DNA from: Bispira polyomma
Lineage: Eukaryota
NCBI GenBank assembly: GCA_965649765.1
Contig: OZ287757.1
Span: 29,512,001 to 29,576,000, forward strand
Direction of reading: 5' to 3'
Length of the DNA stretch: 64,000 nt
A model generated the notes under the pieces. The model had not been told where the DNA came from and did no database searches. It saw only the letters and a list, made by a program, of their open reading frames with translations. The number at the start of each line of letters is the position of its first letter. Within the stretch, counting starts at the first letter, position 1. The translations under genes were made by a program, and so were the position numbers. Shown here in pieces: positions 1-53,332 of the stretch.

Positions 1-705
1 TTAACCATGTAGGGTCGGACAAGATGGTGCCAATTTTGACCGATTGGAATCTATCAGACAAATACGCCGTGAACCATTTAAGTGCAGTACCGTTGATACC
101 AAACCAAGACGATAGGCACTCAAGAAGAACTTTGTGATCAATAGTATCAAATGCAGATCCAGCAGTTCTAAGGCAGTAGGCATACCTTTAGATAAAGATA
201 TATGAATGTCATTTTTGATGCAGAGTAGTGCAGTCTCTGTAGAACGACCACTTCTGTACACTGACTGATACTTATTGCATAGATTACTAACGTCGAGGTG
301 TTGTTTGATCTGTAAGGCGACCACTCGTTCAACCAACTTAGAGAAAAAGCAAAGGCCTGAGACAGGACAGTAGTTTTTCAAGTCAGCCTTTGGGAGAGAA
401 GATTTTTTTATTAAAGGAGTGACAATGGCTTTTTTAAAATCATTTGGAAAGACCAATGAGAGGTTAACAAGTTTTGTGATTGAGGGCAATAAAATGTCAA
501 TACATTCCTTAACAAGGAATGTAGGCCACGGATCTAACAAGCAAGATTTTACGGGTGATGTAAGTATAACTTTCCTGACCTCATCAACAGTTACTGTGGA
601 GAAACAGTTGAAGATGGTTGGTGGAGCTGATGGTAAAGGAGCATTTGGGGCAGCTGATGTAAAACTATCACGGATTCTGGTAATTTTATCAGTAAAAAAT
701 ATCTA
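1..705 (-). mobile_element. L2/CR1-clade LINE ORF2 fragment (pre-RT/RT), 5'-truncated, runs off the left edge
   Basis: Minus-strand reading IFFTDKITRIRD...KSCLLDPWPTFLVKECIDILLPSITKLVNLSL...KKAIVTPLIKK...KNY(C)PVS...STETALL. Clearly homologous to the LINE ORF at 22391-23266; frameshifted near LLDL. Confidence 0.9.
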
Positions 706-722
706 ACGGATTATCCGGGGTA

Positions 723-2780: not shown

Positions 2781-3750
2781 CTCACAAGATATTACTAACC
2801 ACCACTCTGCTTTGCAATTTCCTAAGGCTATTGACGAATATCTGGATAAAGAAAAGAGTAAAGGTGCCATGTTGGGTCCTGTGGCCAACATCCCAGATTA
2901 TCATTTCCACTGCTCACCCTTACTTACTAGGCCCAAAGATGGCAGTAAGAGACGAGTCATTCTTAACCTCTCTTATCCGGTAGGTAATTCAGTTAATGAC
3001 AATGTTAGTCGGGGAATTTATGATGACACGGAATTCTCACTAAAATTCCCTAGTATTGACAATATAACTGCAAGTATTCGGGACACTGATAACCCACTTA
3101 TGTTTAAGGTAGACGTGGCCCGCGCATTCAGAAATTTAAGAGTCGATCCGGTGGACGCTTTAAAGCTGGGTATCAAACATAACGACCAGTATTACGTTGA
3201 CGCTGCCGTGGCGTTCGGCTGGGCCCACGGCAGTGCTATCTTTCAGCGATGTTCGGTTATCATAGCAGATCGGATGAAAACACTGGGTTATAACCTTCAT
3301 TGCTACATTGACGACTATGCTTGCATATGTCGGGAATCTCAGGCAAAACAAGGTTTTGAACACCTCTGCAAATTACTGAATTACGTAGGTCTTCCAATGA
3401 ATCCAGATAAGGTTTGTGCTCCCTCTACTAAGGTCACATTCTTGGGTATTGACATTGACATTACTAAGGGAACAATCAGTATAACTAAAGAAAAAATTGC
3501 TGAAATATTTCAAACATGTGTCGATACACGAAAAATATTCTGGATATCTCGTACAAATTTTCAATCAGTGCTAGGAAAATTGCTTTACATACACAAATGT
3601 GTAAAACCTGCCCGTTGCTTTATTAATCGTCTCCTTTCAGTTTTTAGGGCTTCCCCTGGAGTCAAGCGCTTCAAAATTACTAATAACATTAAAAGTGATT
3701 TAGACCGGTTCATTAATTTCTTTTTAATTACAACAGGGTCACATATATAA
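2764..3750 (+). CDS. Reverse transcriptase (DIRS/Ngaro type), frameshifted at both ends
   Basis: Motifs NHHSA, RPKDGSKRRVILNLS, MFKVDVARAFRNL, FGWAHGSAIFQ, catalytic CYIDD, FLGIDID, QSVLGKL. Confidence 0.92.
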   Translation: MAFQLNSQDITNHHSALQFPKAIDEYLDKEKSKGAMLGPVANIPDYHFHCSPLLTRPKDGSKRRVILNLSYPVGNSVNDNVSRGIYDDTEFSLKFPSIDNITASIRDTDNPLMFKVDVARAFRNLRVDPVDALKLGIKHNDQYYVDAAVAFGWAHGSAIFQRCSVIIADRMKTLGYNLHCYIDDYACICRESQAKQGFEHLCKLLNYVGLPMNPDKVCAPSTKVTFLGIDIDITKGTISITKEKIAEIFQTCVDTRKIFWISRTNFQSVLGKLLYIHKCVKPARCFINRLLSVFRASPGVKRFKITNNIKSDLDRFINFFLITTGSHI

Positions 3751-3779
3751 ATCCTCTCCCAATTAAGGCAAACAAGGAA

Positions 3780-4163
3780 ATGTATTTAGATGCATGCCTC
3801 ACAGGTTTGGGGGGCATTTGGAATGACCAAGTTTACTATACACCTATCTATAATGTTTACCAATATGACCTTCATATTACACAATTAGAGATGGTCAATA
3901 TTGTAGTGCCTTTGAAACTTTGGGGAGAAAATTGGGCTCACCAAAGGGTGACAGTCCATTGTGACAACATGGCAGTGGTCTTGGTCGTCCAGACTGGCAA
4001 AACTAGAGATCCATACTTAGCTGCTTGTATTCGCAACATTTGGTTGCTTACTTCAACACATGACATTACTTTAAAAATAGTACACATTAAGGGTAAAAAT
4101 AATATATTGGCGGATGCTTTGTCCCGAATCTATCTAAACAATCAATTAGGACAATCCTCCTAA
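3780..4163 (+). CDS. RNase H domain of the retrotransposon Pol (continuation of RT across a frameshift)
   Basis: YLDACLTGLGG, ITQLEMVNI, VHCDNMAV and HIKGKNNILADALSR give the D-E-D-D RNase H pattern typical of DIRS elements. Confidence 0.9.
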   Translation: MYLDACLTGLGGIWNDQVYYTPIYNVYQYDLHITQLEMVNIVVPLKLWGENWAHQRVTVHCDNMAVVLVVQTGKTRDPYLAACIRNIWLLTSTHDITLKIVHIKGKNNILADALSRIYLNNQLGQSS

Positions 4164-4241
4164 ACGTAGTATGATGCAGTTACTTAATCAGTATGAACGT
4201 AAACCAGTTCCAATTAGTCACTTTAATTTAAACCTTAACAT

Positions 4242-5228
4242 ATGATTTCAGGTGCTACATCATCATCTGACACCTTAGGGAGGGCAGCCATTGACAGAAT
4301 ACATGCTGCTCTCAGACCTTCTACCACAGCAGCATACTCTAGCCAATTCAGAACATACTTGTCGTTTCTACAGTATGTCCAAATACAGGACATCGCCGTC
4401 CACTCCGTACTAGCGTTTCTAGAATATCTGACACAGAACAATATATCTCCAAAAGTGGTGAACAATTACTTAGCAGGCATAAAGTTCATGTGTTTGAAAT
4501 ATAATCTCAATCATACAGTGCTCCAACATAACTCCATTGCTCTGTTCACACGTAGCCTCACTCACACTTCTTCTTTTAGACCAGCCCCTAAAAGAGTATT
4601 TGATGTCAAACAATTACTGTCAATTTCTGAAAATTGTGAAATACTTAGTGATCCCATACTCTACAGGGCCATATTTCTGGTAGCTTTCTATGGCTTCCTG
4701 CGCATGTCGAACATTGCCCCTCACTCCAGAAGGCAATTTGACCCCTCAAGGTACTTGCTGCGACAAGATTTGATATTTGGCCCTCCTGGGCTTCACATAA
4801 TCATCAAGTGGGCCAAAAACATGCAGGACCGGTCAAAGTCGCATGTGGTCCAATTACCAAAAATAAAAATACCACTCCTCTGCCCAGTACGGGCTCTACA
4901 GAACCTTCTACAATCCAGGAAAATCTCAGATCACTCCCCCGTCTTTGTAACTGCATCTCCCCCATACCACCCCATAATGGATTCACACGTTAGGGCAGCT
5001 TTGAGAACAGTATTACAACACATAGGCATAAATCACACCATACATGGCTTTCACACGTTCCGTAGATCCGGAGCTACCCTTGCTTTTAAGAACAATATAT
5101 CACTTCAAAACATCATTGCACACGGGCTGTGGCAGAGCTCTGCTGTATGGACATACCTACAACCAACTTCCCAAGCTGCCTCAATAATTCCTTCCACATT
5201 TGCAGAAATTATACCCTCTTCATTTTGA
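4242..5228 (+). CDS. Tyrosine recombinase (YR) of the Ngaro-like element
   Basis: Intact 328 aa ORF. N-terminal RPSTTAAY helical domain; catalytic residues in FYGFLRMSN (R), WAKN (K), GFHTFRRSGAT (HxxR) and HGLWQSSAVWTY (W, Y). Confidence 0.93.
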   Translation: MISGATSSSDTLGRAAIDRIHAALRPSTTAAYSSQFRTYLSFLQYVQIQDIAVHSVLAFLEYLTQNNISPKVVNNYLAGIKFMCLKYNLNHTVLQHNSIALFTRSLTHTSSFRPAPKRVFDVKQLLSISENCEILSDPILYRAIFLVAFYGFLRMSNIAPHSRRQFDPSRYLLRQDLIFGPPGLHIIIKWAKNMQDRSKSHVVQLPKIKIPLLCPVRALQNLLQSRKISDHSPVFVTASPPYHPIMDSHVRAALRTVLQHIGINHTIHGFHTFRRSGATLAFKNNISLQNIIAHGLWQSSAVWTYLQPTSQAASIIPSTFAEIIPSSF

Positions 5229-6157: not shown

Positions 6158-7641
6158 GGAAATTTTGACTGAAAAATAAGCAAAATTAAAACAAAATACT
6201 ATAATTGCTACTTACCCTATGGGAGGTCTTAAAATGCCAGATAAATTCGCTGTTCATGTGGCCTCAAAGATAAGGTGGATCAAAAAGTTAATGAGTAATT
6301 CCTTAGGGAATAATAAATGGCATCCTTTGACATGGTACTTAGTAAATATAGAGAAACATAAAATAAAAAACACTTCCATGTATAATGAAATATAAGTGTC
6401 TTACACCATTTCATAAACAACTGTTTGATTGCTGGCAAGAAGTTAATGGTATAGTGCCCAACACCATAGAAGACATCTATAATGAATACATTTTGGATAA
6501 TAAATATATATGCTCTGATAAAAAAAAATTGAAGCTACCAAGTAACATTACACAGGCCCTTGTGGTGAAAGACATATTATCTCATCAAGGTCAAATATTA
6601 ACAAAACAAGAATTTGATATTAAATTTCAGATAAATATAGACATTCTTAGTTATAACAAGATCGTTAGTGCAATACCACAACAGTGGAAAGATAAAATTA
6701 AATGTTTACCGATTATTCGATCAGATTTAAGGAAAATTCCCAAAATAATTGTCAAAGGCACACTTACAGATCTTACAAAGGTCAAAAACAAAATTCTCTA
6801 TTGGGCAGTGGTCAATAATAAATTCCAACAACCAACAGAAATAGATAAATGGATAGATATGTACCCGTTTTTAGAAGTAGCCCCATGGCACAAAATTTTT
6901 GGGTCAATACATATATTTATAAAAGCACTTTATTTTCAATCTTTCAAATACAAGATTCTAAACAGAATTGTTAACCTTAATTATAATTTACATAAGTGGA
7001 AGATTAAAGACAGCTAATTATGCAACTGATGTGGATTAATACTATTGACATCATCTATATTAATGCACAAATTCTAAAGTCTTTTGGGGTGAAACAAAGA
7101 GGTGGATCAATAAGGTCATGAATATAAATAACTTTTGCGAAAATTCTGTCTGTGAAATTTTATTTGGAATTGAAGTAAAGGATAAACAATTAAGTATAAC
7201 TAATCAAATACAAAATCTGATTATATTGTTGGGCAAATGGTATATTAATAAAACTAGGACTAACAGTAATACAATAATCTTTGTCAATTTTTTAAGATTG
7301 GTGAAGTTAAAATTGGAGTCATATGAAAGAAGTCTTTTGTGCCCTGAGAACATTGAAAGAGTTGATAGAGAATTTCATATTAAACTAAAAACTATTATCA
7401 CAAAACTATAAGTAGAGACATGATTTTGGCAGTAATTTATATAATTATGTAAATGTAATTTATAATCAAGGAAATGGCAACAAATTGTGCATAATATCCA
7501 ATTGGTTTATATTTTTGTTACAAATTTATGTTCATAATCTTTTTTGGGGGGGATGATGTGCATCTTTTATACCACACTTGCATGTATGTATTATGTTTGC
7601 AACAACCCCCCCAAAAAAAACAATAAAAAAACAAAACAAAC
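6158..7641 (+). mobile_element. Tx1/L1-clade LINE, 5'-truncated 3' end with A-rich tail and 16-bp TSD
   Basis: GGLKMPD...KIRWIKKL, FQSFKYKILNRIV, decayed CCHC finger and EILFG...IILLGKWYI C-terminus. A-rich tail at 7613-7640. Perfect direct repeat tgtaagcaatatttgc at 6142-6157 and 7642-7657. Confidence 0.92.
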
Positions 7642-8235
7642 TGTAAGCAATATTTGCCTTGAATCAATACTGATACATTATTGGTTAATGTGTTGATAAA
7701 TTATCGGCGAGGTGATATTTGATACATTATTAATCGAGGGGTTGTAACCTTATTGTCTGGGTGAATTAATACATTATTGGTCAAAAGTTGATACAATTTT
7801 AGTTGTTGCTATGTTATTGGTTGTTAATATATTTGAGCTTTTTGATACAGTTATCAGTTGTATCTAAAGACTAACTGGCGGAGACATGTGACAACTACCG
7901 ACCCTAAATTAATTCAAACAAATAATCGCTCAATATGAAAATAACTAATTATATTAAACAATCACACTTGTCCATTAGTAAAATATAAACTAATCAGAAA
8001 CAAATATAAATGCAGCCGTTATTTACTTTGTTTACATTCCAAGTAAAACCGGAAATGAAATTTATTTAACCAAAATGGCAGACTTCCTGTTTCTTAGATG
8101 TATTTGAAACGATTCATAAAATAAAAATTTGTCACAACTAAATAACAAAACGTTTATTTTTAACAATTATTTTACTTATTTTGAGTAATACGAGTTTTTC
8201 ACTGGATAATATGCAAGATACATTTCATATGTTAA

Positions 8236-9212
8236 AATTTTCTACAACTATTCAGAGCCAATACAAATCATTAATGTCGACTAGCCAGCCTAACATTTTG
8301 CAGCCGTTACCTCCCTATTGCAAGTTGTTGATTCAAATCTGAATTTCACAATAAACTTGTCCATAACAGCATGATTTTTTGCAGCACAAAATATATTAAC
8401 TATTTCTCACCTTTTTCATCAAGTCTGAAAACTGATAGATATTGTATATGACCTTCATACCACTTTGAAACTTAGTCAAAACTCACAGCATTTTAGAATT
8501 TACTACAGCTATTCAGAGCCAATACGAAAAATTAATGGCGACTGGCCCGCCTAACATTTTGCAGCCGGTACCTCCCTATTGTCCAGTAGTAAATTCAAAT
8601 CTGAATTTCAAAATAAACTTGTCCATAAGAGCATGATTTTTTGCAGCACATAATATATTAACTATATCTCACCTTTTACATCAACTCTGAAAACTGATAG
8701 ATATTGTATATGACCTTCATATCAATTTGAACATTAATCAAAACTCACAGCATTTTAGAATTTGCTACAACTATTCAGAGCCAATACGAATAATTAATAA
8801 CGACTGGCGCGCCTAACATTTTGCAGCCGTTACCTCCCTATTGTCCAGTTGTAAATTCAAATCTGAATTTCAAAATAAACTTGTCTATAACAGCATGATT
8901 TTTTGTAGCACAAAATATGTTAACTATATCTCACCTTTTCCATCAACTCTGAAAACTTATAGATATTGTATATGACCTTCATACCACTTTAAACATTAGT
9001 CCAAACTCACAGCATTTTTGAATTTTCTACAACTATTCAGAGCCAATGCAAATCATTAATGGAGACTAGCCAGCCTAACATTTTGCAGCCGTTACCTCCC
9101 TATTGCCTAGTTGTAAATTCAATTCAGCATGATTTTTTGCAGCACAAAATTTATTAACTATATGTCACCTTTTACATTAACTCTGAAAACTCAAAGCTCA
9201 CAGCATTTTAGA
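8236..9212. repeat. Tandem repeat, ~262-bp unit, 3 full copies plus one internally deleted copy
   Basis: Anchor ttcagagcc recurs at 8251, 8512, 8774 and 9036; shared blocks gcctaacattttgcagccgttacctccctattg and agcatgattttttgcagcac. Confidence 0.95.
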
Positions 9213-36370: not shown

Positions 36371-39300
36371 ATGGAGGGTGAAAACACAATACCAGTGATT
36401 GATTTTAACAACTGTTCACTGGATATTGATGCAGGGAATTTAAATGAGGAGGTACTAAAACAAACAGGAGAGGCCATTTGTAAAGCCTTTCACGAAGTTG
36501 GATTTATCTATTTGAAAAACCATGGGATTCAGCAGAAAAAGGTACACTGGCCAGTGTTATCTATTGTGAATGATACTGTATATTTTATCTAATGCTGATG
36601 TTTATTTGTACTGAAATTGTATCCTAAATTGCTAGACACTTACAAAACTGAAACAAATATCAAGGAATCAAAATATCATGGCACGAAAGTGTATATATAT
36701 AATGTTGTGAACTTTAATCAAAACATGGTGAATACTGTTAATTAGCTATTAATTATGAAATGTTCTGTGTTAGTGTGTTTTATATAACATCTATCATTGT
36801 TTACCCAATAGATGTACTGTACCATTCTGTATGATATTAATATATAAAAATAATGTTCAAACAAAATTGGTGGGTGTATGTTGAAAAGTTAGCAGTAGAC
36901 CCGCTGAAGGCCTGTGATTTGCAGAGCAGAACACCTTGACCAACTAGCTAAACTGTTCTGATTTCATCCATCATTGAACTACTGCACATAATGGTGTTCT
37001 ATAAGCAATATTTTGGGTCCAGCACTTGTTTTGTATCAAGCGAATAGAAGTTAAGTTTTTGTATCAGGCCGCTGGAAACTTAGTTTTAATTTATTTTGGG
37101 TTAAACATCGCTTTCAACAAACCTTGTAACATATCGAGACATGCATTTCACTGGTGGATGAAATCAGAACATGGAAGTTTGTCTACAAACCACTGGCCTT
37201 CAGTAAGTCAACTATCCACCAAGAAGAATGCAATATAAAATTAAGTGCCTTACTGTTCCTCATCCTTTACAGATAGATGAGACATTTCAATTAGCCAAGA
37301 GATTCATTGAATTGCCTGAGGATGTCAAACACAAATATAAAAGAAATGCTGATGGTTATGGATGGATAGCCATGTCGCGTGAAAGGTAATAGTTCCAATG
37401 GCAGTGTGGTAATAAGGTTGGTATGTTACAGCCTGTTGTCAGATAAAATCCATGAGCACACAAAATTAATCAAATTAATTTTAAGGCATTATGTGATATT
37501 TTGTCATAGTGTGCAAAGCTTCGTTGTAGCTTGAATAAAGAAAGACCACATGATCTGAAGGAATCATTCAGCTATCTACCGCAATATGCACATGTAAGTA
37601 CTCAATCCCTTCGAGGTTTCATTAATGTATATCAGTACATGTATGCCATACTATTCTATTAAGGAGTCAAAGTTCTACTGGATCATTTTAGTTATTGAGA
37701 ATCATAATCCTAGGACAGTCGTCAGGAAACAGTTGAATATGATTTACATTTTACTATCTGGAAAAGTGAGGTGGATGAATTAGTTCTGATATTTAGAAGA
37801 AGGGAAATCCGCAAAACTGGTGTCGTGTGAAAGAATGAATGACAGAACGATTTATGACTTATACATCTCATGTTATTGAATTTAGGGACCAGGGTTACTC
37901 AAACAAGTGTGGGGCCGCGGTGGCCTAGTGGTTAGCAAGCATTGCGCTTCACAATCACTGGTCTCTCACCTCTGGGCGGCGTGAGTTTGAATCCCGTCGA
38001 TGCCTATGTGGGAAAGGTGGTAGTTCCTTACTGTGGGCCGCTGGTTTCTGTGCAGAACCTTGACCGACTGTATGCAGTGTTTCCTCCAGCGTTTCCAACT
38101 ACCCGTCCCAATATAACCTACTAAAAGGTACTAGAGTGGACGTTAAATATCTAAATTCAAATTCAAATACTCAAACAAGTGTAGGTAACAGGTATATGCA
38201 TAAATAACATGTTTAGACTGATCACACAAGGTTTTTGGTATTCATGGATGCTATAAAAGCTAACTTAACCTATTATATCACACTTATGTAGGAATTCCCC
38301 GATCCAAACAAAGATGTGAATGGTTTTGGTAACATCATGGAAGAGATGTTTCACAAGTGTTACAAACTCTCCATGAGAATTTTGGAAGCAATTGGAAAAG
38401 GATTAAAGTTGGAGGTAAGTCTCGTAGTTGACATTGACACTAAAGGTTTAGTATTAAACAAGGGTATTGATATTAAAGTTGAAGTAATACAAATATGTGT
38501 AATAAAACTTCAAAAAAATTAAGCTGTCATCTCAATGAACTACTGTTTGACAAGTCTTCACATAATACTATATATTACAGGATCCATATTACTTCAGTGA
38601 AGCACATCAACCATATATAAGGAAGAGCTTGACATCTTTGCGGATGTTGTATTATCCCCCAATTAAGGATGTTACAAGTAAGGTTATCTGTTATTCTATA
38701 CCGAATTATCACTGTGCAGCTTACTAAAAGTGCATATAGTAATTCTATACTTTATTGTATTTCATAAGAGAACTTCATAGTACATGCAAAATTTCATGGT
38801 ATATTTAACAAAACCTATTGACTCTGAGTCTTTGGGATATCACATTAGTATTATATGTCTGTCGCCTATGCTGTTGTGGGGTCAAATCTCAGCCCTGATG
38901 TGTATGTAAGAAAGTATGTGGTAGATTTGCTAAACACCGGTGGTTCGTATAGCGCAAAACATTGAACAATTACCCTGTTCTGATTGCCTCCACTAGTGTG
39001 CCACAAGACAAGTTATACGTGAAACTCAAAGTAAACTAAACTGATTTTCACTGAAATAGGAATGAAATATAAAACAATATTATTGTTCTAATCCATACAA
39101 GTGTCTTTAGGTCGTTTTAAAGCAGTCACTAGTTGGTGATCTTTAGTCACAGTAAATATGTCTGAAATCTACAAATGATAATGTGTGTCTGTCAATTTGT
39201 GGGTCAATTTCTATTAAAGCAATAGAAGCAAAACAAATCCGCTGTGGAGAACACTCAGACTGGGGTTCTATAACATTACTGTTTCAAGATCAAACTGGAG

Positions 39301-41472
39301 GCTTAGAGGTAATAAGAACTTATTATATTGTATTAAGGGGATCAAACTGGGAATCTTTTATCGCGATAACAACTCTGTAGCAACTAGATCACAAGCTATG
39401 AATAATCTAATCTTATCAAACTTTTATAGCACTTATCTCTGTGTACATGAGACAAAAAATAATTTTGACGATATAGCATATAGCAAATTTTTAATAATTC
39501 ACATGGTTATTACCCTAAGAAGCCAATTAGGCATGTTGCAGTCATTTACATGCTTGTCCATTACCCTTATGGCCTGGTCTCATTGATACATACCTGTGGG
39601 CGCATATGTTTTTGGTGTGGTGTTGACAGAAAGAAAGGGATTGTAGTTCATGTTCTTAAATACCTACCAACTGGCCACTAGCCTACCAGAAAATCTACAG
39701 ACAGATCAACCACTTTCATGTAAAGATGCTCATTTGTCTAGCTCCACAAATAGCTGCACGGGGCCGCGGTGGCCTAGTGGTTAGCAAGCAGTGAGCTTCA
39801 CATTCACTGGTCTCTCACCTCTGGGCGGCGTGAGTTCGAATGCCGTCATGCCTATGTGGGAAAGATGGTAGTTCCTTACTGTGGGCCGCTGGTTTCAGTG
39901 CAGAGCCTTGATCAACTATATGCAGTGTTTCCTCCAGCGTTTCCAACTACCCGTCCCAATATAACCTAAACAGGTACTAGAGTGGACATTAAATATCAAA
40001 AAAAAAAAAAAAATAGCCACACAGGCATGTGTAAATGAGACTGGGCTATGATTTATGTTCAACCATTTTAATGAATACTTAATTTTGCTATTTTCTTTGT
40101 TAACATCATCAACACACTATTAAATATTATCAATATACATTCAGTTTTAGATGTGATATGAAGCAAATTGTCATGCCATCTTACACTGAACAAAATATTT
40201 ATTCGTTTCAAATGTAGGTTATATCCAAAGGAAAGTTTCAGCAGGCCACACCAATACCAGGCACGGTCCTGGTTAACATTGGGGACTTGATGCAAAGATG
40301 GAGTGGGGATTATTTTAAATCAACTGTAGGTATTAAGGCTGTATATTTGGCTGGCTCTACCTGGGATGATTTTTATAATGTTGTTTTTTTGTAATATACA
40401 TGGTATTGTTCCACCCAATGTCAAATATAGTCGCAATTATTAGTTGTGTCCAGTTTTCAAAATTTTAACAACTGTGCACTACATGTGAAATTTTTTTGAG
40501 CTTGGTTATTCTATGGCACATAAATAGTAATCAGGGGTGAAATAATTAAAGTTGAGAACTTTACACTTTAAGTACTGCAGGTTTATTTACCGACAGCAAT
40601 TTGAATTCTATATTTTTTGGGTCACCTATTTTTAAGATTTCCCCAAAACTGTTAAAAAGATGGGTGATTTGACTATATATAATATATTTAAATTTATTTT
40701 CTCTATAAGTACATAGGATGCCATTGTCAATTAGTACACTCAATCTGTAATACAACAATGAACCAATTTATAGTCTCCTATATATCAATATTTGCTGATT
40801 TGGGCTTTGTTCATTACACAGTGTTATACTAGAAGGTTCGATCATTTAAATGACTTTATATTTTTAAAAATAGCAGTTACAATATGCCTTGATTATTAGA
40901 CATCTTCCGTCATAGAGGAATTGGCTTGGAGACAAGCGGTAACATAAAATGTTGTGTAATCGCAAAAAGTTCTCACCAGCGTCTTCCGGATGTCTCCTCA
41001 ATTTCTTAAGTGTCTCTATCTTGTCTTCTTATTGTCTCCAGTCCAGTAATTGCTTCCACTCGATTATGATGGCATGGAATTTCTAAATGTTCAAATTCAC
41101 AGCCACAATGAACCTTTGAAGAGACAAGGAGACACTCACCTATTTCTTAACTTTGTCTTTGAAGTTTCCACCCATGTCGTCTTGCATGTAAAGTAGTCAT
41201 ATCATTCCAAAATATCATTGCTTTACTTTTTACTGGTAAACGATTAAATACTCTTACATTACATATTTTGTTTCTGTACACAGGTACATCGAGTGGTCTT
41301 ACCTGAAGCCCTAGCTGCATATCCAGAGCGGAAATCTTTGGCTTTTTTTGCTATACCTGACGATGACTGCGAAATTGTCAGTTTAAAGCCACAGGAAGGT
41401 AGTGATCCAACTCCGCCAATCAAAAGCAGAGATTACATGGATATGAAGATGACAGCTGCTATGCGTTATTGA
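36371..41472 (+). CDS. 2OG-Fe(II) dioxygenase B, isopenicillin N synthase-like family; 8 coding exons, 317 aa
   Basis: Exons 36371-36541, 37273-37385, 37530-37593, 38292-38414, 38581-38677, 39220-39308, 40218-40325, 41284-41472. GT-AG, same intron phases as gene A (954 nt, open). HSD...VHRV and RKS motifs intact. Confidence 0.93.
37911..38167 (+). mobile_element. tRNA-derived SINE, copy 2
   Basis: Near-identical to copy 1; 15-bp TSD tactcaaacaagtgt (37896-37910 / 38168-38182). Confidence 0.95.
39760..40010 (+). mobile_element. tRNA-derived SINE, copy 3 (poly-A tail)
   Basis: Same body, pure A tail, imperfect TSD aaatagctgcac / aaatagccacac. The empty site is visible in paralog C near 58460. 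Confidence 0.93.
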
Positions 41473-42030: not shown

Positions 42031-42615
42031 AATGTAAGGTCTGGGTCATTTATTTAAGGTTTTGTGGAGGGGATGCCTGGATGATAATTTTGTGCAGGTT
42101 GTCAAATTGCAAAGCTTTGTGTAGTGTTGTGTATGTGCAGCTAATATTTAATTTTCGATAAAACAGACAAAGCTCTTAAATTGTGGAGCAGATTGAGATA
42201 AAATAGGGGATCCAGAGTATTGTCCCTTCTTGGCCCTGCAATGTCCTTATAGAGTCATTCACTATAATGAGTGTCAGTATTGTTAAAAATTTATTCTTTT
42301 TTTTTTTTGAAAATTATATTTTAAAAGGCTATTTTACATGAACAGTAGCATTGTATGATTTTAATAAGTATAATAGCTTAAACCCTTCTCTTATCTAAAA
42401 AAGAGCAGTTGATAGTAGTTTAACATTTACCTCATAAAATAAGTCCCATTTAATCTTTGGAAACATTTAATGTAGAATTACTTCAGCCGACACAGCTGCT
42501 GACATTCATTTATGTAATTTTATTGATACATTGGAAGCTACTTTATTGTACATTTATATCAGCCCAAAGACATACAACCAAATTAAATTATACATTGTCT
42601 AGTTATGGACAAGTA

Positions 42616-42864
42616 GGGGCCACGGTGGCCTAGTGGTTAGCAAGCATTGCGCTTCACAATCACTGGTCTCTCACCTCTGGGCGGCGTGAGTTCGAATCCC
42701 ATTGATGCCTATGTGGGAAAGGTGGTAGTGCCTTACTGTGGGCCGCTGGTTTCTCTGCAGAACCTTGACCGACTGTATGCAGTGTTCCTCCAGCGTTTCC
42801 AACTACCCGTCCCAATATAACCTACTAAAAGGTACTAGAGTGGACGTTAAATATCCAAATTCAA
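42616..42864 (+). mobile_element. tRNA-derived SINE, copy 4
   Basis: Same body; 15-bp TSD agttatggacaagta (42601-42615 / 42865-42879). Confidence 0.95.
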
Positions 42865-44942
42865 AGTTATGGACAAGTAAAAATAAAACACAGTGTAACA
42901 GTAGTTGTAATAGGTACACAGATAAATGTGTGAAGATGAAGCCATACTTTAAGTAAACTGATGAATAAAGTAAGAATTGATTGTAACAATTCAACATACA
43001 AATGGAGAGGTATGGTAAAAATTGAAAAGACAGAGTTTTTAATAAACTGTCAACAGGTATGAGTAAGACCATATAAATGAAATGTACTTAACTGAAATGG
43101 AATATCCAAGGATATATCTGTGAAACTTCACAAACAGTACAGTAGGTGGTAAGCACAATATGTAGTTCAATGGTAACATAAAGAAGAAGTAAATGTTACT
43201 TTTTCCACTAGTATTAATTCATAAAAGGGAAGAACAATATAATAATATATATCTGTGTCAGTAAAGAGCAAAGCTTCAACTGATTACACACACACACAGG
43301 TTTTTCAACACTTTGACCCCATCTGGTAAATATCAGTTTGACTGATTCATTTGAATCTACATAGTGGCCAGCAGGACAGTAGTCATGTATTGTAATAAAA
43401 CCATCTTTAACTTTTTGGGAGCTATTATTGGGTAATGTAATTGTGAAATAACTATCGTCTGTGGCTAACTTCATACTTACTCTGCACTTGCTAATAGGTC
43501 CACTCACAAGTCTGTTTGGTTAAACCTAAAAGGTAAGGACAGATTCTTGGTCCATCAGTTTGTGTGTAGATTAGTTTAGTTATTAATTTGAATTAAATCT
43601 TACTGTCAATACTGGCATATTGTATCATGAAAGGCCCTATATCAGGGTAGTTTTATTTTCCTGGAAAAAAATAATCATTCTATAAATCACAGATTTCAAT
43701 CCATGACTATGGAGGGTAGTTGCCAAAGTGTTACCTCTATCTTATTATTATTGTGATTTTTACGACGCTTTATTGATTCTAGACATTTTCTAAAGCACTA
43801 CAACAGTATCAGTTTATTATGTAGTTTATAAACATAGCCAGGTCATATGGAAGAACGTGGGGTGTACATGAGGGAATTAAGGGGATTAGAGAGCTTGAAA
43901 AGATAGGTTTTAGGTTTTTCCCTATCATTCTTGGTGGGTTTAACAGAGGAGATAGAAAGTCTATTACCTCTTTTCAGGATACCAAAAGAAAGAAGGGAAG
44001 GGAAGTATGATCGCTGTTAAGTATAATTGGTACACTTTGATTTTAAGCAAAATTTTATAGTAAATAGGTAGCCCTGCATAGATATTTTGGAATAAATTGG
44101 TAAAAAGTAAGCTTTTTTGGTATTATAGGAGGAAATCCCTAGCCTATACCTCTTTGCCCTTTCTTGATAATGACATTTTTTAGTGTTTCTTTACCCAATA
44201 TAGACCACAAACAAAAGACTAATCACAAAAGATAATCAGTATGTTTGATTTTAATTATTAAATGACTGGAAATTCATATTATTTTATATATTTAAATATG
44301 TCAATACACAATATAATCTGACCCAGTATCGGATGCAGTATAAAAACACCATCCAAATTGGTCTAATCGAAGGGGACGTAATTGTTCGAATCGGATAGCA
44401 AGCCCCTTTGGTGTTTGTGCTAGAATAGCTGGTATGCTGTTTGACGGAGCTGAAACTGAACATTTGGTTGACAAGCAAAAGAACCCAGGCTGGAGAGGTG
44501 TACATTGTAAAGTCAGATCACCAGGTAATCATACCATTTCGAGTTAGCTTTTATGATGGAGTCGAAGTGTTCATTCAGTGATAGTGATTTATGACAATCT
44601 GATAACATTTTCTGTCAAAAGCTGATTTTTTTAGTTGTCGTTTCTGAGATTTGGCTTCCTTGCTATCTGGTGTCGTCCAATCATGGGGGTTGGCAGGTGC
44701 AGTAGGCAGCGCCAATGCACGAAGGGGTTCAGTTCTTGGGGTACCAGACTAAAATTAACTTGACCTAGATCGTGGCTAGTATAAAAGACAGCTCATTTCA
44801 AATTCTCCCGCCTTTCTTACTTTTGTTTACCAAGGAACAACTTCAAAACATGGCGTGGTCGTTTAAATTTTGTGTTAAAACTCGAAAATTGCACTGTTCT
44901 ATTGTTTTATACACCATTGCTTTATTCAAACATAAGTTCAAG

Positions 44943-47497
44943 ATGCCACGTGTTAAAGAATATAGTTGTTCCAAATGTAGGTGAAAGCATGAAAGGCCAG
45001 TTGTGAAACATTGTGTACATTTCAATGGGCCGGAAGAGGGATCCGCTGCCATTGACAGCCCTAGGGTTACAGGTGCCCGCTATCTAGTTCTTGAGGGCTC
45101 GGTTTCAGAACAAATACTATTGCAAATGCAATCTATGTCCCAGATGATGGAAAAGATGGATCAGCGGGTGCTTCTTACGGAGGCTGCGATGGCTGGAAAC
45201 CTCACCAAAAACCAGGTGGGTAGTAGTTCTCTTTCTAAAAGTTATGTTTCCAAAACCGGTGATGATAATGTGGTAACAGAAAGTGTGATCCCTAGCGTTG
45301 ATTTTGAGAAAAATTCAGCCATTCAGAGCCAAGTAGAGCAAAGGCTCTACCTAAGGTAAGAGAGGGGGAGGGTCCGATATATTGGTAAAAAAAATCATGT
45401 TCTATCCGGCAGTATCAAAAGTTATGACGATTTGTCCTTAAACCAATGGGTGTGCGGATTCACCAAAATTATTCAAGATGACAAATAACAGGCAGTCTGA
45501 GAAATAATTCTCAAGTACACAGCGAATCTGATGGAAGACTCCCACGATTTTTCCTTGGAGGCGGCCAAGGCATGTCATGCTGTCGTTTTATCAACAATGG
45601 AAATGGATATGTTACAATGGACGGATGTGGACAAAATAGACCGATTAAGGCAGGGTCCATGCCCAAAGGCACATACAAAATAATGGCAGTTCTCCGGGCA
45701 TAGGTGCACGGGTGGTAGTAAAACCAACATCAATGCCCAGCAGAATTGTGCTAATTGTAAGTTCTTTTAAGAAGAAACTTGTAAGTTTCCAAGTAGCCAC
45801 AAAACGAGCAATATATATTTCAAACAGATTTGTGAATCATGCGGAAGGACACACAAAAACTTGCAGTAAAAACAACTAAACAAAAACAAAAAAAACTAAG
45901 TGGCCACTGCATCAATGCAGTGGGCGATAAAAGTGTGGAAGAATGAATTTTCAATCGAACTGTTTTTAGAAAGGGTTTTGATTTATTTCATCTACTAAAC
46001 AAAATGGTGATTCAAAAAATGTGTAAATATAATAGGGCTACAACACCACGGTATAGCTACAGCTAAATTGTGCAGAAAGCACGTAGTAGTGTGACTTTTA
46101 GGTAAAAAAATGTATTAAATGTTGTAAATTTAAACACAAGTGTGTTACTAATTCAGGAATGCCCAAACAAAAACCAGTCAGTACGAATGTGGGGCTGAGT
46201 TGAAAACAACTGTGGCCAGTTGTAGTAAGGGATTTATATCCACTGATAAATATACTTTTGAGCTCAAGCAGGAACAAAATCAACACAAGTTGTTAGAGAA
46301 AGCAAAAACGGATAAAACAATTTTCATGATCAGAATGCAGTACAATATAGCTTTACACCTTTGTCCACAATAAGTTGTAAAATCTGGGATAACAGTGCGG
46401 AAAATCTGGGTGAAAATATATTAGAAATGCATCAAATACTATGTTGTGATGGCCGACATAATTATGATGGCCTCCAAATACCAGTAGATTTACAACTGAA
46501 TGCTGATAGGTGGGAACATTATCTCGACAAATATTGGGATTGACAGTTGCCGTTTAACTTAGGTACAGGTTTCCACTTGATGTGAACCCCTATGTTCGGA
46601 CAATAACAATTCGGCTACAAAATTTCCTGATCACGTTGATTTCTAGTTGAGAGGGGAATGCTGCCATGGAGCAATGCTCGGGCAGTTTAAAAATCTTCCA
46701 ATTAAAAATCTTGATTTTTTCACTAATGATGACACAAAATAAATGAGCTCAAGTAACAAAGCTGGTCATCGTTGATATTAGCCAAAAGACAAATCAGTTA
46801 ATGCGGTTGCTTCACCCACCGCATACATGGGCACTGAATTTTTACTGTCTTATTCTTCAATTGACAACCTAACTAATAAAATTCGGAAACTGGAAAAAGG
46901 TTGTGAAATCTTCAAAAGTGACGTAAGCAGGGCATTCTGCCACATACCCATTGACCCAGGGGCCATACATTTGCTTGACCACAAATGGGGTGATTATTTT
47001 ATAAATAAATCCCTGCCGTTCGAATATCAGAATGACTCCACTATTTGTCAACATCTTTTGGACGCAGTTCGGTTCATAATGTACTCTGAGGGTCATGACG
47101 TCCACAATTATATAGATTATTTTTATGTGCTTCGTTACCAAGCCAAATTAATAAGACTTATGAGAGACTGCAAGATCTTTTACCCGAATTGGGCCTAACA
47201 ATAAATGAAAAGAAATTAGTGGCTCCCAGTACGGAGGTTGTTTGCCTTGGGATAAGCATTAACACAATTGAATGTACCATCTTAATTCCGGATGAAAAAC
47301 TAAAAGAAATCCAGGATAGGTGTACTGTATGGAACTACAAAAATTGTTGCAATGAAAGAGAGTTACAGTCTCTTCTGGGTTCGCTGTTGTATGTTGCCAA
47401 CTTCATTAATTGTACCAGATTATATCTGAATAGAAAGCTTCAGCTATTAAGAGATAACCACAGCAAAAATAAATTTCCTATTACTCTATGCAATATT
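44943..47497 (+). mobile_element. Ngaro-like retrotransposon copy 2 (decayed gag + RT), cut by a MULE
   Basis: N-terminal CSKC..H..C finger; gag core YDDLSLNQWVCGF...LMEDSHDFSLEAAKACHA. RT remnants QLNADRWEHYL, FKSDVSRAF, HNYID, CLGISIN, LQSLLGSLLY. Many stops. Confidence 0.85.
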
Positions 47498-49480
47498 CGG
47501 TGCGCGGACAAAATGCCGGTGGACAAAATGCCGGTCAAAATTGCAAGGGTGGACAAAATGCCGGCCGGTTTTGGGCCGGGTGGACAAAATGCCGGTCTTT
47601 GGATTGTGAGCATTTTATTAACATTGAAAGGTTACAACCTTAAAAACGTTTGATTTTCAAGCACATAAAAAACTTTATTAACATTAAAAATATTTTCAAG
47701 CACTACATAGTCTTATCAACATTAAAAGCCATCACCATGACAAGAATATATAAATCATTTTAGTCGAATAGAATGCCCTATTCCATTCAAAAAGTCTTTG
47801 ATACAAATTGTTTTGTTGGCTCTCTGAACACATAAGTTGAACAGTTTTTGTTGGAGGTCTTTTGTACACTTCCGTTGCCTTTTTTGGGGAGGTTGTCCAC
47901 GAGCTGCCTGAAGTAACTGACTTATGACCATAGCAGCATCATCCCTCAAGTGGTCAATGAGCCTCCAGATGGATGGGTGGTCATGTCCAACTGTCTGGCG
48001 GAATGAGTTGTTCCACCCCTCGCAGTAGTTGTTTGTTCGGTCTGCTCCTTGTACGGTGATCTGATGAACATTCCACACATCCAATGGGTACTGAGGTGGT
48101 ATCTTACGCAGGCGAATACAAGGCAGATTATCACCGGTGACTGGTCTTTGAACACGCCGAAAACTTCCACTGACATAGGTGTGGTCAAAGTAGTCCAGTA
48201 ATTCATCACCGGGTGTGTAACATATTTCACGTAGGTACTGCATCCCCTCAGAGATTTCCTCTACTGGCAGGAATGCAAGCCCGTCCACCATCCCACAGAA
48301 GTGCTTGAACTCTCCATCTAGTTTGTAGAGATCTTGTAGGCCAAGTCCTTGAATTTTCCTCCACGTGCTTTGGGTCAGATGATAGAAACAACCTTTAATA
48401 GTGATGTGAGAACCCAAAACTTGCTGAAAGGCATTGATTACAGATCGCTCAAAGTCCATATGAATAATTTCTGGATCTGGGCTGAAACCTAATGACTCGC
48501 ATCTATCCACAATAGCCTGAAGCATCTCAGTGTAGAGTTCTTGGGATTTGCCTGACAACAATGCATAGCAACATGTCACTGCTGACTCTCCAAGTTTTGC
48601 CCGAATGACGTATAGCTGTTGGAATATTAAAGGGGCCACAGAAAAAGTTCCATCGACAAACCAAGTGTCTGCCAGAGCTAGGTGTTTGAGTCCCTCATCA
48701 GTGGCAAACACAATCACCCTCTGTCTGTTTCCGGAACCGCTGTCGTGGACCAGGAAAGTCTTTGGATGAGGTCCTGATGTTTGGGTCCATTCACCTTCAA
48801 CAGTCAGTTCTTCTAGAGTCTTTGGGTCCTTTGGGAGGTTACCGCGTTGAATTCGTCTGATGGATCTCTTGAGACTATCAGGCTTGCCAATCTCAGCACG
48901 CACACCATTACTTGCTTGTGAGAGTGTTGAGCTAAGGATGGCATGTGGCTTTACTTTGGATACCTGAGAGGAACTTTTTAACTGGTTTCTCAACTTAGCA
49001 ACTTCAACTGTGGTAGTGCTGGTGTCATGGCAATGTGGATGTTTAGGCACTGGATTTTCCATATCTGAATTAGTCACCAGTGAACCATTACACAAAAAAG
49101 CATTTTTTTGAGAGCATGACCACTGTATGAAATTTTTAGTCTTTGATTTCTTAGTGTACATGAAACCCTCAAAACATAATTTTGACCCTCCTTTATTTGT
49201 TTTAATTAACTCCATAATCTGTCAGCTCTGGTTTCACTTGATGAATGATTATTGGTAAGAAAAACTGAACCTTTTATAGACATAGTCACTGCCAAGGAGG
49301 TTGCAATTGATAAATGAGCAATTGAGCAATTGAGCAATTGAGAAATGTAATTGAAGATAAAATCACAATATCACAAAGGATTATTATTGGCAAAGACAGG
49401 AATGATTCAAAGGGACAAGTTTTCAAAGAAATAGTTCAAAACCAGAGGATTGCAGTTACCCCTAAATAACTCTTTATTCC
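47498..49480 (-). mobile_element. Mutator-like (MULE) DNA transposon, one terminus retained
   Basis: The terminus at 47498 carries four ggacaaaatgccgg subterminal repeats (47506, 47521, 47551, 47582) and the element holds an intact transposase. No matching inverted end was found on the other side. Confidence 0.88.
47755..49215 (-). CDS. FLYWCH-MULE DDE transposase, intact 486 aa
   Basis: N-terminal FLYWCH finger (TNKGGSKLCFEGFMY...WSC...C...HCH); catalytic WFVDGTF, IHMDFE, CFYH (CxxH) and RTNNYCEGWN. Confidence 0.95.
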   Translation of the reverse strand: MELIKTNKGGSKLCFEGFMYTKKSKTKNFIQWSCSQKNAFLCNGSLVTNSDMENPVPKHPHCHDTSTTTVEVAKLRNQLKSSSQVSKVKPHAILSSTLSQASNGVRAEIGKPDSLKRSIRRIQRGNLPKDPKTLEELTVEGEWTQTSGPHPKTFLVHDSGSGNRQRVIVFATDEGLKHLALADTWFVDGTFSVAPLIFQQLYVIRAKLGESAVTCCYALLSGKSQELYTEMLQAIVDRCESLGFSPDPEIIHMDFERSVINAFQQVLGSHITIKGCFYHLTQSTWRKIQGLGLQDLYKLDGEFKHFCGMVDGLAFLPVEEISEGMQYLREICYTPGDELLDYFDHTYVSGSFRRVQRPVTGDNLPCIRLRKIPPQYPLDVWNVHQITVQGADRTNNYCEGWNNSFRQTVGHDHPSIWRLIDHLRDDAAMVISQLLQAARGQPPQKRQRKCTKDLQQKLFNLCVQRANKTICIKDFLNGIGHSIRLK

Positions 49481-49489
49481 TATTGGGAC

Positions 49490-51261
49490 AAGCAACGTAT
49501 AAACTTTACTCTAAAAGGTAAAATAGCAGTTTTGAAATCACCGATTGTTCCTCATATTTTACAATTAGCTTTTGTCCTTCCTTTGAGTCAGATTTGGATG
49601 TTATGTTTTACAATTTTGTGTGGAGTAAAAAGAATCGTCTTATTTCAAAGAATGTATATGTACAGCCATCAGAGTTAGGTGCTCTAAAATGGTACCTGTT
49701 AAATATATAGTTGAGACTGCCAAAGTTATGTGGATTAAAAGACTTTGTAACAATGTGAACGCCAAATGGAAGGTCTTGGCTGTTGATTTAATGGGTATTC
49801 ATAAGAGCAATTTATTGACTAAACGACTGTTCCAAAATATCAGCCATAATGTAAAGACTACTTTCTATTTAAGTTTACTTTCTAGCTGGTTTAGCTTTCT
49901 AAAAACTAATGTCGTAAGTGTGCATGACGTGCACAGTGAATCAGTGTTTGACAATTCATTGTTTGTCATTGATAGTAAAGTAATCAGTGACAAATATGGC
50001 AATTGGAAGGACTCTGGTATTTTACAGGTTTGTGATATATTGAAAGACAACTATGAAACTTTCATGTCTAAAATTGAACTAGAAAGAAAATATAAAACAA
50101 ACATAGATGATATGGTGTACAACCAAACTATTAGTGCACTATCTGTTTAACTAAGAAAGTTGTCAAAATATAAATCAAATAGTCTCACAACAAATTATAT
50201 AAATATACCTAATTGCTGTTTAAAGAATATTGGTTTAATTAAAAGTCCACAAGTACATACATATTTTATTGTCACTTCAAAATAGCCAAAATAAATGGGT
50301 AGAATACTATCTATTTATGGAGACTGTGGACTGGAAAAACATGTTTTACCTGTTAAAACTGTTATTGATACATACTTGATCACACTTCAGTATAAAATTT
50401 TACAGAGTGTATGCATGCAATTACCAGCTTTTTAATTGGAAAATCAAAGACTTGCCAGACTGTAGCATTTGTAGTAGGGTTGATAATTTAGAACATTATC
50501 TTTACTGTTGTCCATATACTAATAATTTTTGGAAACAGACTCAAAAATGGTGGATGAACCATACCTGTGGTAATTATGATTTAACAGTTTTGAAAGTTTT
50601 ACTGGGTGTAATTAAATTTAATCCCAAATATCACTATATTGTCAATTATGTTATCTTAGTAGGAAAATATTTCATCAGCAAATCTAAAAAACAAAGTCAA
50701 GACTTATACTTTCAAAATTTTCTGCGATCTTAAAAATAGAAACTTATGTTGGAGCAGAGCTTGTACACTAATCAAGGTAGAATAACAGTATTTGAAGAAA
50801 AACTTGGTCTATTGTTAGACTATCTTTGAAATGTGTTATGTCATTTTTACATTGAATTATATCCTTTGAATGCACAGGCTTATTTTGCGCTCAAACCTGT
50901 AATTGATAATATTTGTAGTACACAACAGTTACTGTTATATTTCATGTAGCAATTGTCCTTATAGTGTCATGATCGCTTTCGTTATTGTATGTTACTCTTG
51001 TCATGTACCTTTTTCTTATGGTTTTGTTAGTCTGCTATGTCAAAATAAATTTGTAAAGCTTTTTTGTTATGTAAAAATTAGTGAAACTTTTATTTTAATG
51101 TAATATGGTACAGACTGATAAAAAATGTCTTCTGTACAAGAACAACAAAAAAGTTTATTTTGTTTGTAATTGTATATTACTGTATTGTCTTTTTGTTTTG
51201 TGTAACTGTATTTGTATTGTTATCTGTTTCAAATGTATATAAAAAAATGAATAAAAAAAAA
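49490..51261 (+). mobile_element. Tx1/L1-clade LINE 3' part with A tail
   Basis: TLKGKIAVLKS, LGALKM, KVMWIKRL, CCHC finger CSICSRVDNLEHYLYCC, VILVGKYFI. 3' UTR and A-rich tail at 51241-51261. No TSD found. Confidence 0.9.
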
Positions 51262-52750
51262 GATGCGTACAAGAACAAAAGTCCCCTGAGATTAAGGAAG
51301 CAATGCTTGGGTATTTAGCCAACTTTATGGACGACGCCCACAACTTTTTGTGGGAAGCCGCAAAAGCTTCTCATGCTATCTTGTTGACTAATATGGAGTT
51401 GGATTGTCTTAAGTGGACCAATGTAGACAAGGTTGATCGGATTCGCCGGGCTCATGCCCAACATCACAAATCTGGTTCCAGTAGTAAGGCAAAGGTTTAG
51501 GTTAAAGCTCAAGGTGTTACATGTCAATTTTTTCAGGAGGGCACCTGCAAATGCCACCCACCGAACCTCAGGGCAACTTTTTAAACATTATTGTGAGACT
51601 TGTGTTGGCAATCATCAAACAAAATTATGTTCACAAAGGGTTAAAAAAACTTAAGGCCTACTGCAGTAATCCAGTGGGCATGTCAGTCTGTAGTAGAATT
51701 GTATACAATTTAAGGATTTTAAAGTATTGTCTAACGTGTGTTTATAAAAGTATTCTTGTTCTAACCAAATTGTACAAAGATTTTTTGTCAAAAATAGGAG
51801 TTGTAAGTCTACCCAAATGAGTGTTGTTTTTGACAAAAGACCACTTAAAAGTAAAATTGATCCTATGCATTGTTCCAGTAAGGCTAACCGGTTGAATAAC
51901 CACAGCCATACTCCTGTAAACAGGTGTGAACGGGGTGTCACAGTAAGGTCAATAAAGATGTCCAAGGGGCTTGACCCCGCCACAAAAGACCTTAGTGTTA
52001 ACAAACCATTGTTCAAAAAGAAAGAGGTTGACACGGGGGGGGTGCCAACAATGACTTCCAATTAACACTCTTGAATAGGTTTGGTGTATTAGACACACAT
52101 TGTGGGGAGAGAGAGAACAGTCCTAACTTAATTGATTGTATGAAGGCCCCTCCTGTGTGGTTGTGTAAAGTGAAAAGAAAACAAATGAAAATGTCAAAAA
52201 CAAAATGTCAATTCCTAGAAACGACTTGAGAAATAACACTACTGACTTGTCGGATGATAAATATGCTCTGGATATGTGCAGGTCACTTGACAAGCATAAA
52301 AGACTAAATGATGCAAAGGGGTGTGATACTTTTAGATTATGGGACATCCAAAATAGTGTGAAATTTGGGTTTATTCCACTCTCGTCGTGGGGGCAAAAAA
52401 TCTCAGACAATTCCTAGGAACAAAATTCTATGAATGTGTTTGTACTCCATAAGCATAGAGAGAGGATGGTCATCGAAACTACAGGGGTCTGCAGGTCCCT
52501 GTCGTTTCTCAGCTGAAAGCTTCAGTATGGGCCAATTACTTGAGAAACTACTGAGACTAGGAACTCTCTTTGCTTATAAAATTTGAGTTTCCCCTTGATT
52601 TTACTGAACAACACAAATTCAAGTCGGAACTAGAAAATCACACTTCTGCCAATCAGTACCCAGAACATGTTACTCACTACTTAAAAAAATAGTGTGAATT
52701 TAGGGCCATGTATGGTTCCTTTGATGTGCCACCAATTTTAAATTCACACT
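51262..52750 (+). mobile_element. Ngaro-like retrotransposon copy 3 (gag C-half to RT start), decayed
   Basis: MLGYLANFMDDAHNFLWEAAKASHA...DRIRRAHAQ, finger CQFFQEGTC...HYCETC, KFGFIPLS, and RT start SQLKASVWANYL...FPLDF...NHTSA...AMYGSF. Confidence 0.85.
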
Positions 52751-53332
52751 GAAACAAACAGGAGAAGCCATTTGTAAAGCATTTTACAAAGTCGGATTGG
52801 TTTATTTGAAAAACCATAGGATTTAGCAGAAACAGGTACACTAGCCAATGATATCTATTGTAAATGATATACTGTATATTATATCTGATACTAATGTGTA
52901 TTTGTACTAAAATTAGCCCCTAGAGACAGTTATAAAACTAAAACAAATCATAAGTACTCAAAATACCATGACCTACTCTAGTAATGTATATTCCCTGTTG
53001 TAAATTTTAATAAAAACAAGGTGAAAACTGTTAATTAGCAATTTAATAAATTAAGTTATATACTATTTTGTTTTTTCTAACATCTGTTTTTTTGTTAACC
53101 AAAAGGTACACTGCACTATGCTGAACAAGATAAATAAATAAAAATAAATTTAAAAAGCCATTGTGGGTTATCTGTGTGTGTGTTTAAAAGTTAGCAGCAG
53201 CCTTGCTGAAGGTATGTGGTTTACAGAATACCTTCACCAACTGCATACTATGTTATGATGCCATCCACCAGTAAACTGCACATTGTGATATGATACAATG
53301 TTAATGTCTCAAAGTAAATGTAAGGAAGCAGA

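Follow-up and report, generated by a model that had tools for sequence, protein, structure and literature searches.

Programmed -1 ribosomal frameshifting is a textbook mechanism. The slippery heptamer A AAA AAC, with spacers of 6-9 nt, is listed for MMTV, HTLV, BLV, EIAV, IAP and astroviruses in the available part of PMC3835772. The junction described here shares with these sites (MMTV, HTLV-1/2, BLV, EIAV, IAP and astrovirus ORF1a/1b; available parts of PMC3835772 and PMC3542737) the same heptamer, a spacer within 5-9 nt and a 3' RNA structure, and likewise has a structural gene upstream and the polymerase in the -1 frame. Among animal LTR retrotransposons, pol lies in the -1 frame in 28 of 51 surveyed elements, many with tandem shift heptamers (PMC5009743, in part); these gag/pol-shifting elements are of the integrase type, unlike the tyrosine recombinase (YR) elements considered here, and neither DIRS nor Ngaro nor tyrosine recombinase is mentioned in the accessible text of that survey. 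For Ngaro elements in print, a frameshift at the RT/RH-YR overlap was proposed by Poulter and Butler 2015, as quoted in the portion of PMC13003380 at hand. In the literature searched, including the available parts of PMC3783388, PMC6681497, PMC9210276, PMC8547959 and PMC5009743, no gag/pol slippery site was found for DIRS or Ngaro elements, and pol expression in YR retrotransposons is essentially undocumented there; Goodwin and Poulter 2004, Poulter and Butler 2015 and Repbase notes or supplements may mention one.

We analysed a 64,000-nucleotide stretch of Bispira polyomma DNA (the window) that carries decayed copies of such elements, together with their relatives in the 1.04 Gb genome. Judging from sequence comparison, the gag/pol junction is very probably (probability about 0.88) a programmed -1 ribosomal frameshift signal through which Gag-Pol is made. 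It differs from the retroviral and astroviral sites in that its host is a YR retrotransposon without protease or DDE integrase, in that its predicted stimulator is a short hairpin of 7-9 bp, and in that, in the window's clade, the gag stop follows directly on the heptamer. In the proposed mechanism, the hairpin would pause the ribosome with tRNA-Lys and tRNA-Asn on AAA AAC; both tRNAs would slip back by one base and translation would go on into RT/RNase H. Unshifted ribosomes would stop at the next codon and free Gag, so that the Gag-Pol fusion would arise in a minority of translations.

Long natural copies encode a gag of ~350 aa ending in a zinc knuckle, a pol of 810-870 aa that includes RT and RNase H, and a YR ORF; Pfam matches (RVT_1, RVT_3, Phage_integrase) and ORF maps place these in the order gag, RT/RNase H, tyrosine recombinase. 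Split direct repeats in the arrangement A1-B1-A2-B2 were found in L092, L093, L098 and L105 of the window's clade, in L323-L327, and in L117 and L138 of a sister clade in which gag ends in UAG. No methyltransferase domain was matched by Pfam in the pol proteins scanned, and pol ends after RNase H. The Ngaro superfamily of the order DIRS, as described in the available parts of PMC3783388 and PMC8547959, has the same gag, RT/RNase H and YR, the same A1-ORFs-B1-A2-B2 layout and no MT. We use the term Ngaro-like on structure alone; split repeats are also a feature of PAT-like and VIPER-like elements (PMC6681497, in part). One very young family (L322-L327) consists of near-identical copies with intact gag and pol and split repeats about 99% identical, which indicates recent activity in this genome.

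Within the window, the second copy carries the heptamer A AAA AAC at 45890-45896 (plus strand, as are all features of the three copies given here), and window sequence and the gag homology frame place it in gag phase. The gag stop TAA (45897-45899) forms the first 3 nt of a 7-nt spacer (45897-45903), which is followed by an 8-bp hairpin with a 4-nt loop (CCACTGCA-TCAA-TGCAGTGG, 45904-45923). This hairpin folds at -15.8 kcal/mol (z -4.7) and, from folding and conservation, is the likely stimulator of the frameshift. The letters of heptamer, stop, spacer and stem-loop agree with the preliminary description of this DNA, as do the -1 frame peptides of copies 2 and 3, KKLSGHCINAVG and KKLKAYCSNPVG. 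The decayed gag of copy 2, with a C-terminal zinc knuckle, spans 44901-45899 (tblastn to intact relatives, 47%), and a remnant of the A split direct repeat lies at 44698-44850, with a 76% match to the A repeat of the related locus L185. The decayed pol (linker and RT, 45896-47485; homology) falls with frameshift clade 1 in RT trees and is interrupted by a MULE transposon, whose transposase with a FLYWCH zinc finger has an open frame of 488 aa on the minus strand (47500-49221).

The preliminary description had held that the gag frame at the heptamer could not be confirmed in such decayed copies. In the case of copy 2, however, the phase can be read from homology despite local decay: gag homology at 44901-45854 is in register with the codons AAA AAC TAA, from which it is separated by local indels and a stop at 45867, and the match to pol sets in at 45896, in the -1 frame. 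Both strands of the window together contain 35 AAAAAAC sites, and those of copies 2 and 3 have the strongest hairpins 5-9 nt downstream; a hairpin strength of -13 was reached at 2 of 599 random positions. The only other site that comes close in hairpin strength (14552-14510, minus strand) has a 6-nt spacer and an 11-bp hairpin (-10.9) and occurs once in the genome. We considered it as a further signal and rejected it as probably a chance occurrence, having no ORF context; such a single copy shows that the bare motif can come about by chance.

A pattern for the whole cassette gave 624 exact matches in the genome, and its reversed control gave none. To avoid circularity, copies were also chosen by the gag protein minus its last ten codons. 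Of the 30 best hits, 19 had the perfect in-phase heptamer and stop; so had 43 of a set of 60 longer loci, which was drawn from 150 hits mostly for open gag frames and overlaps the best-30 set. A perfect 7-bp stem at 7 nt followed in 16 of these 19 and 37 of these 43; the remaining gag-selected copies were one-base variants, indels, deletions or a form with an early stop. Among gag relatives from other assemblies (116 hits), 76 retain the last knuckle, and 65 of these have a K-N tail, seen at the protein level only; the residue before K-N was always S, A, P or T, which is what an in-phase A AAA AAC would encode. Viral contigs, prokaryote genomes and a first metagenome scan yielded no relatives with DNA context outside this genome. 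One metagenome contig of a distant relative (L291:1317-1319, a single copy) has gag-TGA-pol in frame with a short pol N-terminus.

The frame of pol was followed in every fetched locus with a length of 4 kb or above. At 29 loci the end of gag adjoins a pol ORF of 600 aa or longer, with pol in the -1 frame at 22, in frame at 4 and in +1 at 3. All 22 of the -1 loci have pol behind A AAA AAC, several of them being near-identical members of one family. Gag and pol overlap by only 19-28 nt in the window's clade, so a shift must occur at or beside the heptamer. Within 38 codons after the gag stop, 21 subfamily representatives showed a stop in the -1 frame in 1 case, in the 0 frame in 16 and in the +1 frame in all 21. 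The natural copies bear out the expectation that the heptamer shares the phase of gag and that pol lies in the -1 frame.

An alternative is separate translation of Pol from its own AUG near codon 40, via reinitiation or leaky scanning. A methionine does occur at codons 39-44 in 11 of the 21 clade-1 representatives; in the remaining 10, as in further clades, it is missing or lies elsewhere (first Met at codon 19 to 342). A conserved pol start codon, which was looked for in the 21 representatives and in the other clades, was not found, in agreement with the earlier expectation that pol has no ATG of its own. Moreover, the -1 frame is open and conserved upstream of that methionine, and a separate start leaves the in-phase heptamer unexplained; we regard separate initiation as very unlikely. 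Slippage of the polymerase on the A6 run, adding an A and yielding mRNAs with gag and pol fused, finds some footing in homopolymer runs that differ in length between genomic copies of these elements. The run at the junction, however, is only six A in 578 copies and always ends in C, and slippage would presumably require neither this run length nor the C at its end, nor the fixed codon phase and the 3' hairpin at ribosome spacing that are seen here. We consider polymerase slippage extremely improbable.

The evidence for the hairpin of the proposed frameshift signal comes from the same 21 representatives, whose RT identity is 66%; the 3' arm was part of no search pattern. Synonymous sites in RT are saturated (none of 58 fourfold columns reaches 90% third-base conservation), whereas GCA and GTG in the stem keep their third base in 21 of 21. 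Paired bases are kept where the amino acid varies (C-7 in 20/21, U+5 in 20/21 and G+12 in 21/21), and the hairpin loop is free to vary. Compensatory change, for which the preliminary description had proposed to search the stem, was found in part: besides the invariant synonymous sites there is one compensatory pair between clades, and within the window's clade covariation is not significant (79 of 500 shuffles reach the score). In a second clade with 7 representatives, the basal pair C-G is swapped to G-C (22:7) and the outer pair partly covaries. Covariation over the two clades, reached by 0 of 500 shuffles, is overstated, since the swap represents one clade-level evolutionary event.

Frameshifting might be real and the hairpin nonetheless kept for another reason, for example as a packaging signal, as the target of a sequence-specific protein or because it encodes the H-C-x-x-A-V peptide, with the A-run and the adjacent stop producing the shift. 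Each synonymous stem base is paired to the first position of an H, C, A or V codon, and constraint on the protein could thereby freeze the stem; in addition, the six core pairs never covary across the two clades, and one heptamer clade (L372, L373) showed no strong stem 5-9 nt downstream. Against this, the 7-nt spacing is fixed, bases remain paired even at variable amino acids, and further clades exchange both the peptide and the stem sequence yet retain a stem 6-9 nt downstream. These further clades, with RT identity of 41-53%, keep the in-phase heptamer at 29 of 30 loci, at 28 of 30 loci and at more, and their downstream stems and peptides are unrelated to those of the window's clade. Different stems after a kept heptamer are stronger evidence than the swap of the basal pair, and we find it decidedly unlikely that the hairpin is kept for a reason other than frameshifting. 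At some loci (L292-L297, L306, L307, L320, L328), two interleaved helices follow the heptamer; they might fold into an H-type pseudoknot or, instead, into alternative hairpins.

Production of Pol from a spliced mRNA with its acceptor at the gag/pol junction has in its favour that splice-like signals are conserved elsewhere in these elements, the donor lying within gag and the acceptor ahead of YR. A polypyrimidine-AG precedes YR in one codon phase at 66 of 133 loci, compared with 7 and 11 for the other two phases, and a GT of matching phase lies at a conserved Gly-Lys of gag in 95 of 97. By comparison, the gag/pol junction is purine-rich, and a loose test found an acceptor-like site in only 24 of 150 junctions; a spliced Pol is therefore hardly credible. 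For YR, the sequence signals suggest a Gag-YR splice rather than an RT/RH-YR frameshift. This differs from the printed account of Ngaro, so far as available, in that the frameshift cassette lies here at gag/pol and a splice-acceptor-like site precedes YR. In the window, donor-like GT occurs at 1087 and 45356 and an acceptor-like AG at ~4251; donor and acceptor are in phase 1, as at many loci.

The claim that these YR retrotransposons make Gag-Pol by programmed frameshifting gains support from the phase, start-codon and stem comparisons and probably holds for the window's clade; it does not extend to all Ngaro-like elements of this genome, because sister clades have pol in frame after UAG or in +1 and the subfamily of copy 3 has an early stop. 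The gag/pol junction of copy 1 (element 696-5228) reads TGG at 1677-1679, where its family has TAG-G with pol in frame. In this clade, gag-TAG-G-pol is in one frame in 49 of 58 unique copies, and long pol is present in L117, L126 and L138. The UAG loci (window 696-5228; L062-L090, L111-L150) are candidates for amber readthrough, and a loosely conserved GT(C/A)-C(A/G)AC motif lies 10-15 nt after the stop. Folding of the sequence after the UAG in copy 1 did not reveal a stimulator structure. In another clade, gag ends in GTT plus any stop and pol is in the +1 frame, at 16 of 20 loci fetched and at three further loci. Its gag (L382, L383, L388, L392-L410) ends in Q-(R/Q)-V, with GTT followed by TAG, TGA or TAA.

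The in-frame gag-UAG-G-pol arrangement resembles gammaretrovirus UAG readthrough, and GUU-stop with +1 pol resembles the closterovirus GUU-stop +1 frameshift (both motifs in the available part of PMC3542737). By analogy, both modes are putative; the base after the stop is here mostly U, not C. As the deep RT branches among the recoding types are weakly supported (0.46-0.77, midpoint root), we claim no order of switches between them.

Copy 3 retains the heptamer AAAAAAC at 51644-51650 and a decayed hairpin at 51656-51679, flanked by the decayed 3' part of gag (51261-51648) and a pol remnant (51645-52782), both recognised by homology. The heptamer and hairpin described earlier for this copy are therefore both present, but the hairpin is weaker (-12.8 kcal/mol, z -2.7), with one stem pair broken, and a TAA at 51642-51644, common to the copy 3 subfamilies, directly precedes the heptamer codons in the heptamer's phase. 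The gag stop after the heptamer is mutated to TTA. Copies 2 and 3 are dead remnants of the cassette. Across the genome, 68 copies have T-A7-C (in codons, TAA AAA AAC and then a stop) versus 578 with six A, about a tenth, and the early TAA truly terminates the gag ORF in these copies. Two clades near copy 3 have it fixed, and a third family carries either TAA or TCA; loci with a stop directly before the heptamer include the window site (51642-51650), L095 and L271-L288.

In the 10 copies of early-stop clade A, whose identity is 89-98% in the pairs listed, shared RT variants were 13 non-synonymous to 38 synonymous and singletons 97 to 84 (non-CpG, p 4e-4). This result survives the omission of any copy, with a neutral ratio of ~2.8; transversions alone, too few in number, gave no significance for this clade. 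The same comparison was not significant in early-stop clade B (8/18 versus 76/101, p 0.29) or in one canonical control family. Because RT in clade A is under purifying selection, its Pol seems, on this sequence evidence, to be used in cis despite the stop, and clade A is unexplained by a simple frameshift model. Pol might be reached by a slip at an upstream in-phase A AAA AAG, by a P-site slip at the stop itself, or by readthrough followed by a shift; either slip would give a transframe protein of ancestral length. The hairpin is too distant for a slip at the upstream A AAA AAG or at the early stop. Alternatively, Pol of the early-stop elements could be supplied by trans-complementation with recombination. 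A shift assisted by a stop codon may come to light in the early-stop subfamilies. An apparent RNase H frameshift common to the early-stop clades was discarded once it had been traced to a poly-G run that differs between individual copies.

Taken more widely, the junction might act as a recoding switchboard, with -1 frameshifting through at least four stimulators, UAG readthrough, +1 shifting at GUU-stop, a spliced YR and early-stop Pol made in cis; we hold this tentatively, at somewhat below an even chance. The occurrence of three recoding modes at the same homologous junction within a single host would offer a natural experiment on how control of the Gag:Pol ratio evolves. The -1 junction provides an exact, reporter-ready signal of 50 nt, backed by hundreds of natural variants. 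Annotation would change as well: gag and pol would form a single unit of translation, and the unshifted product would account for many predicted proteins with a K-N(E/D) end.

Several other repeats lie in the window. LINE-type reverse transcriptase-like fragments, judged by eye from their translations, occur at 1-702 (minus strand), 6367-7411 (plus) and 49629-50730 (plus). A tandem array of ~262-bp units spans 8229-9196, and four copies of a SINE-like repeat, whose 5' end resembles a tRNA, lie at 31892-32153, 37905-38166, 39760-39968 and 42610-42871.
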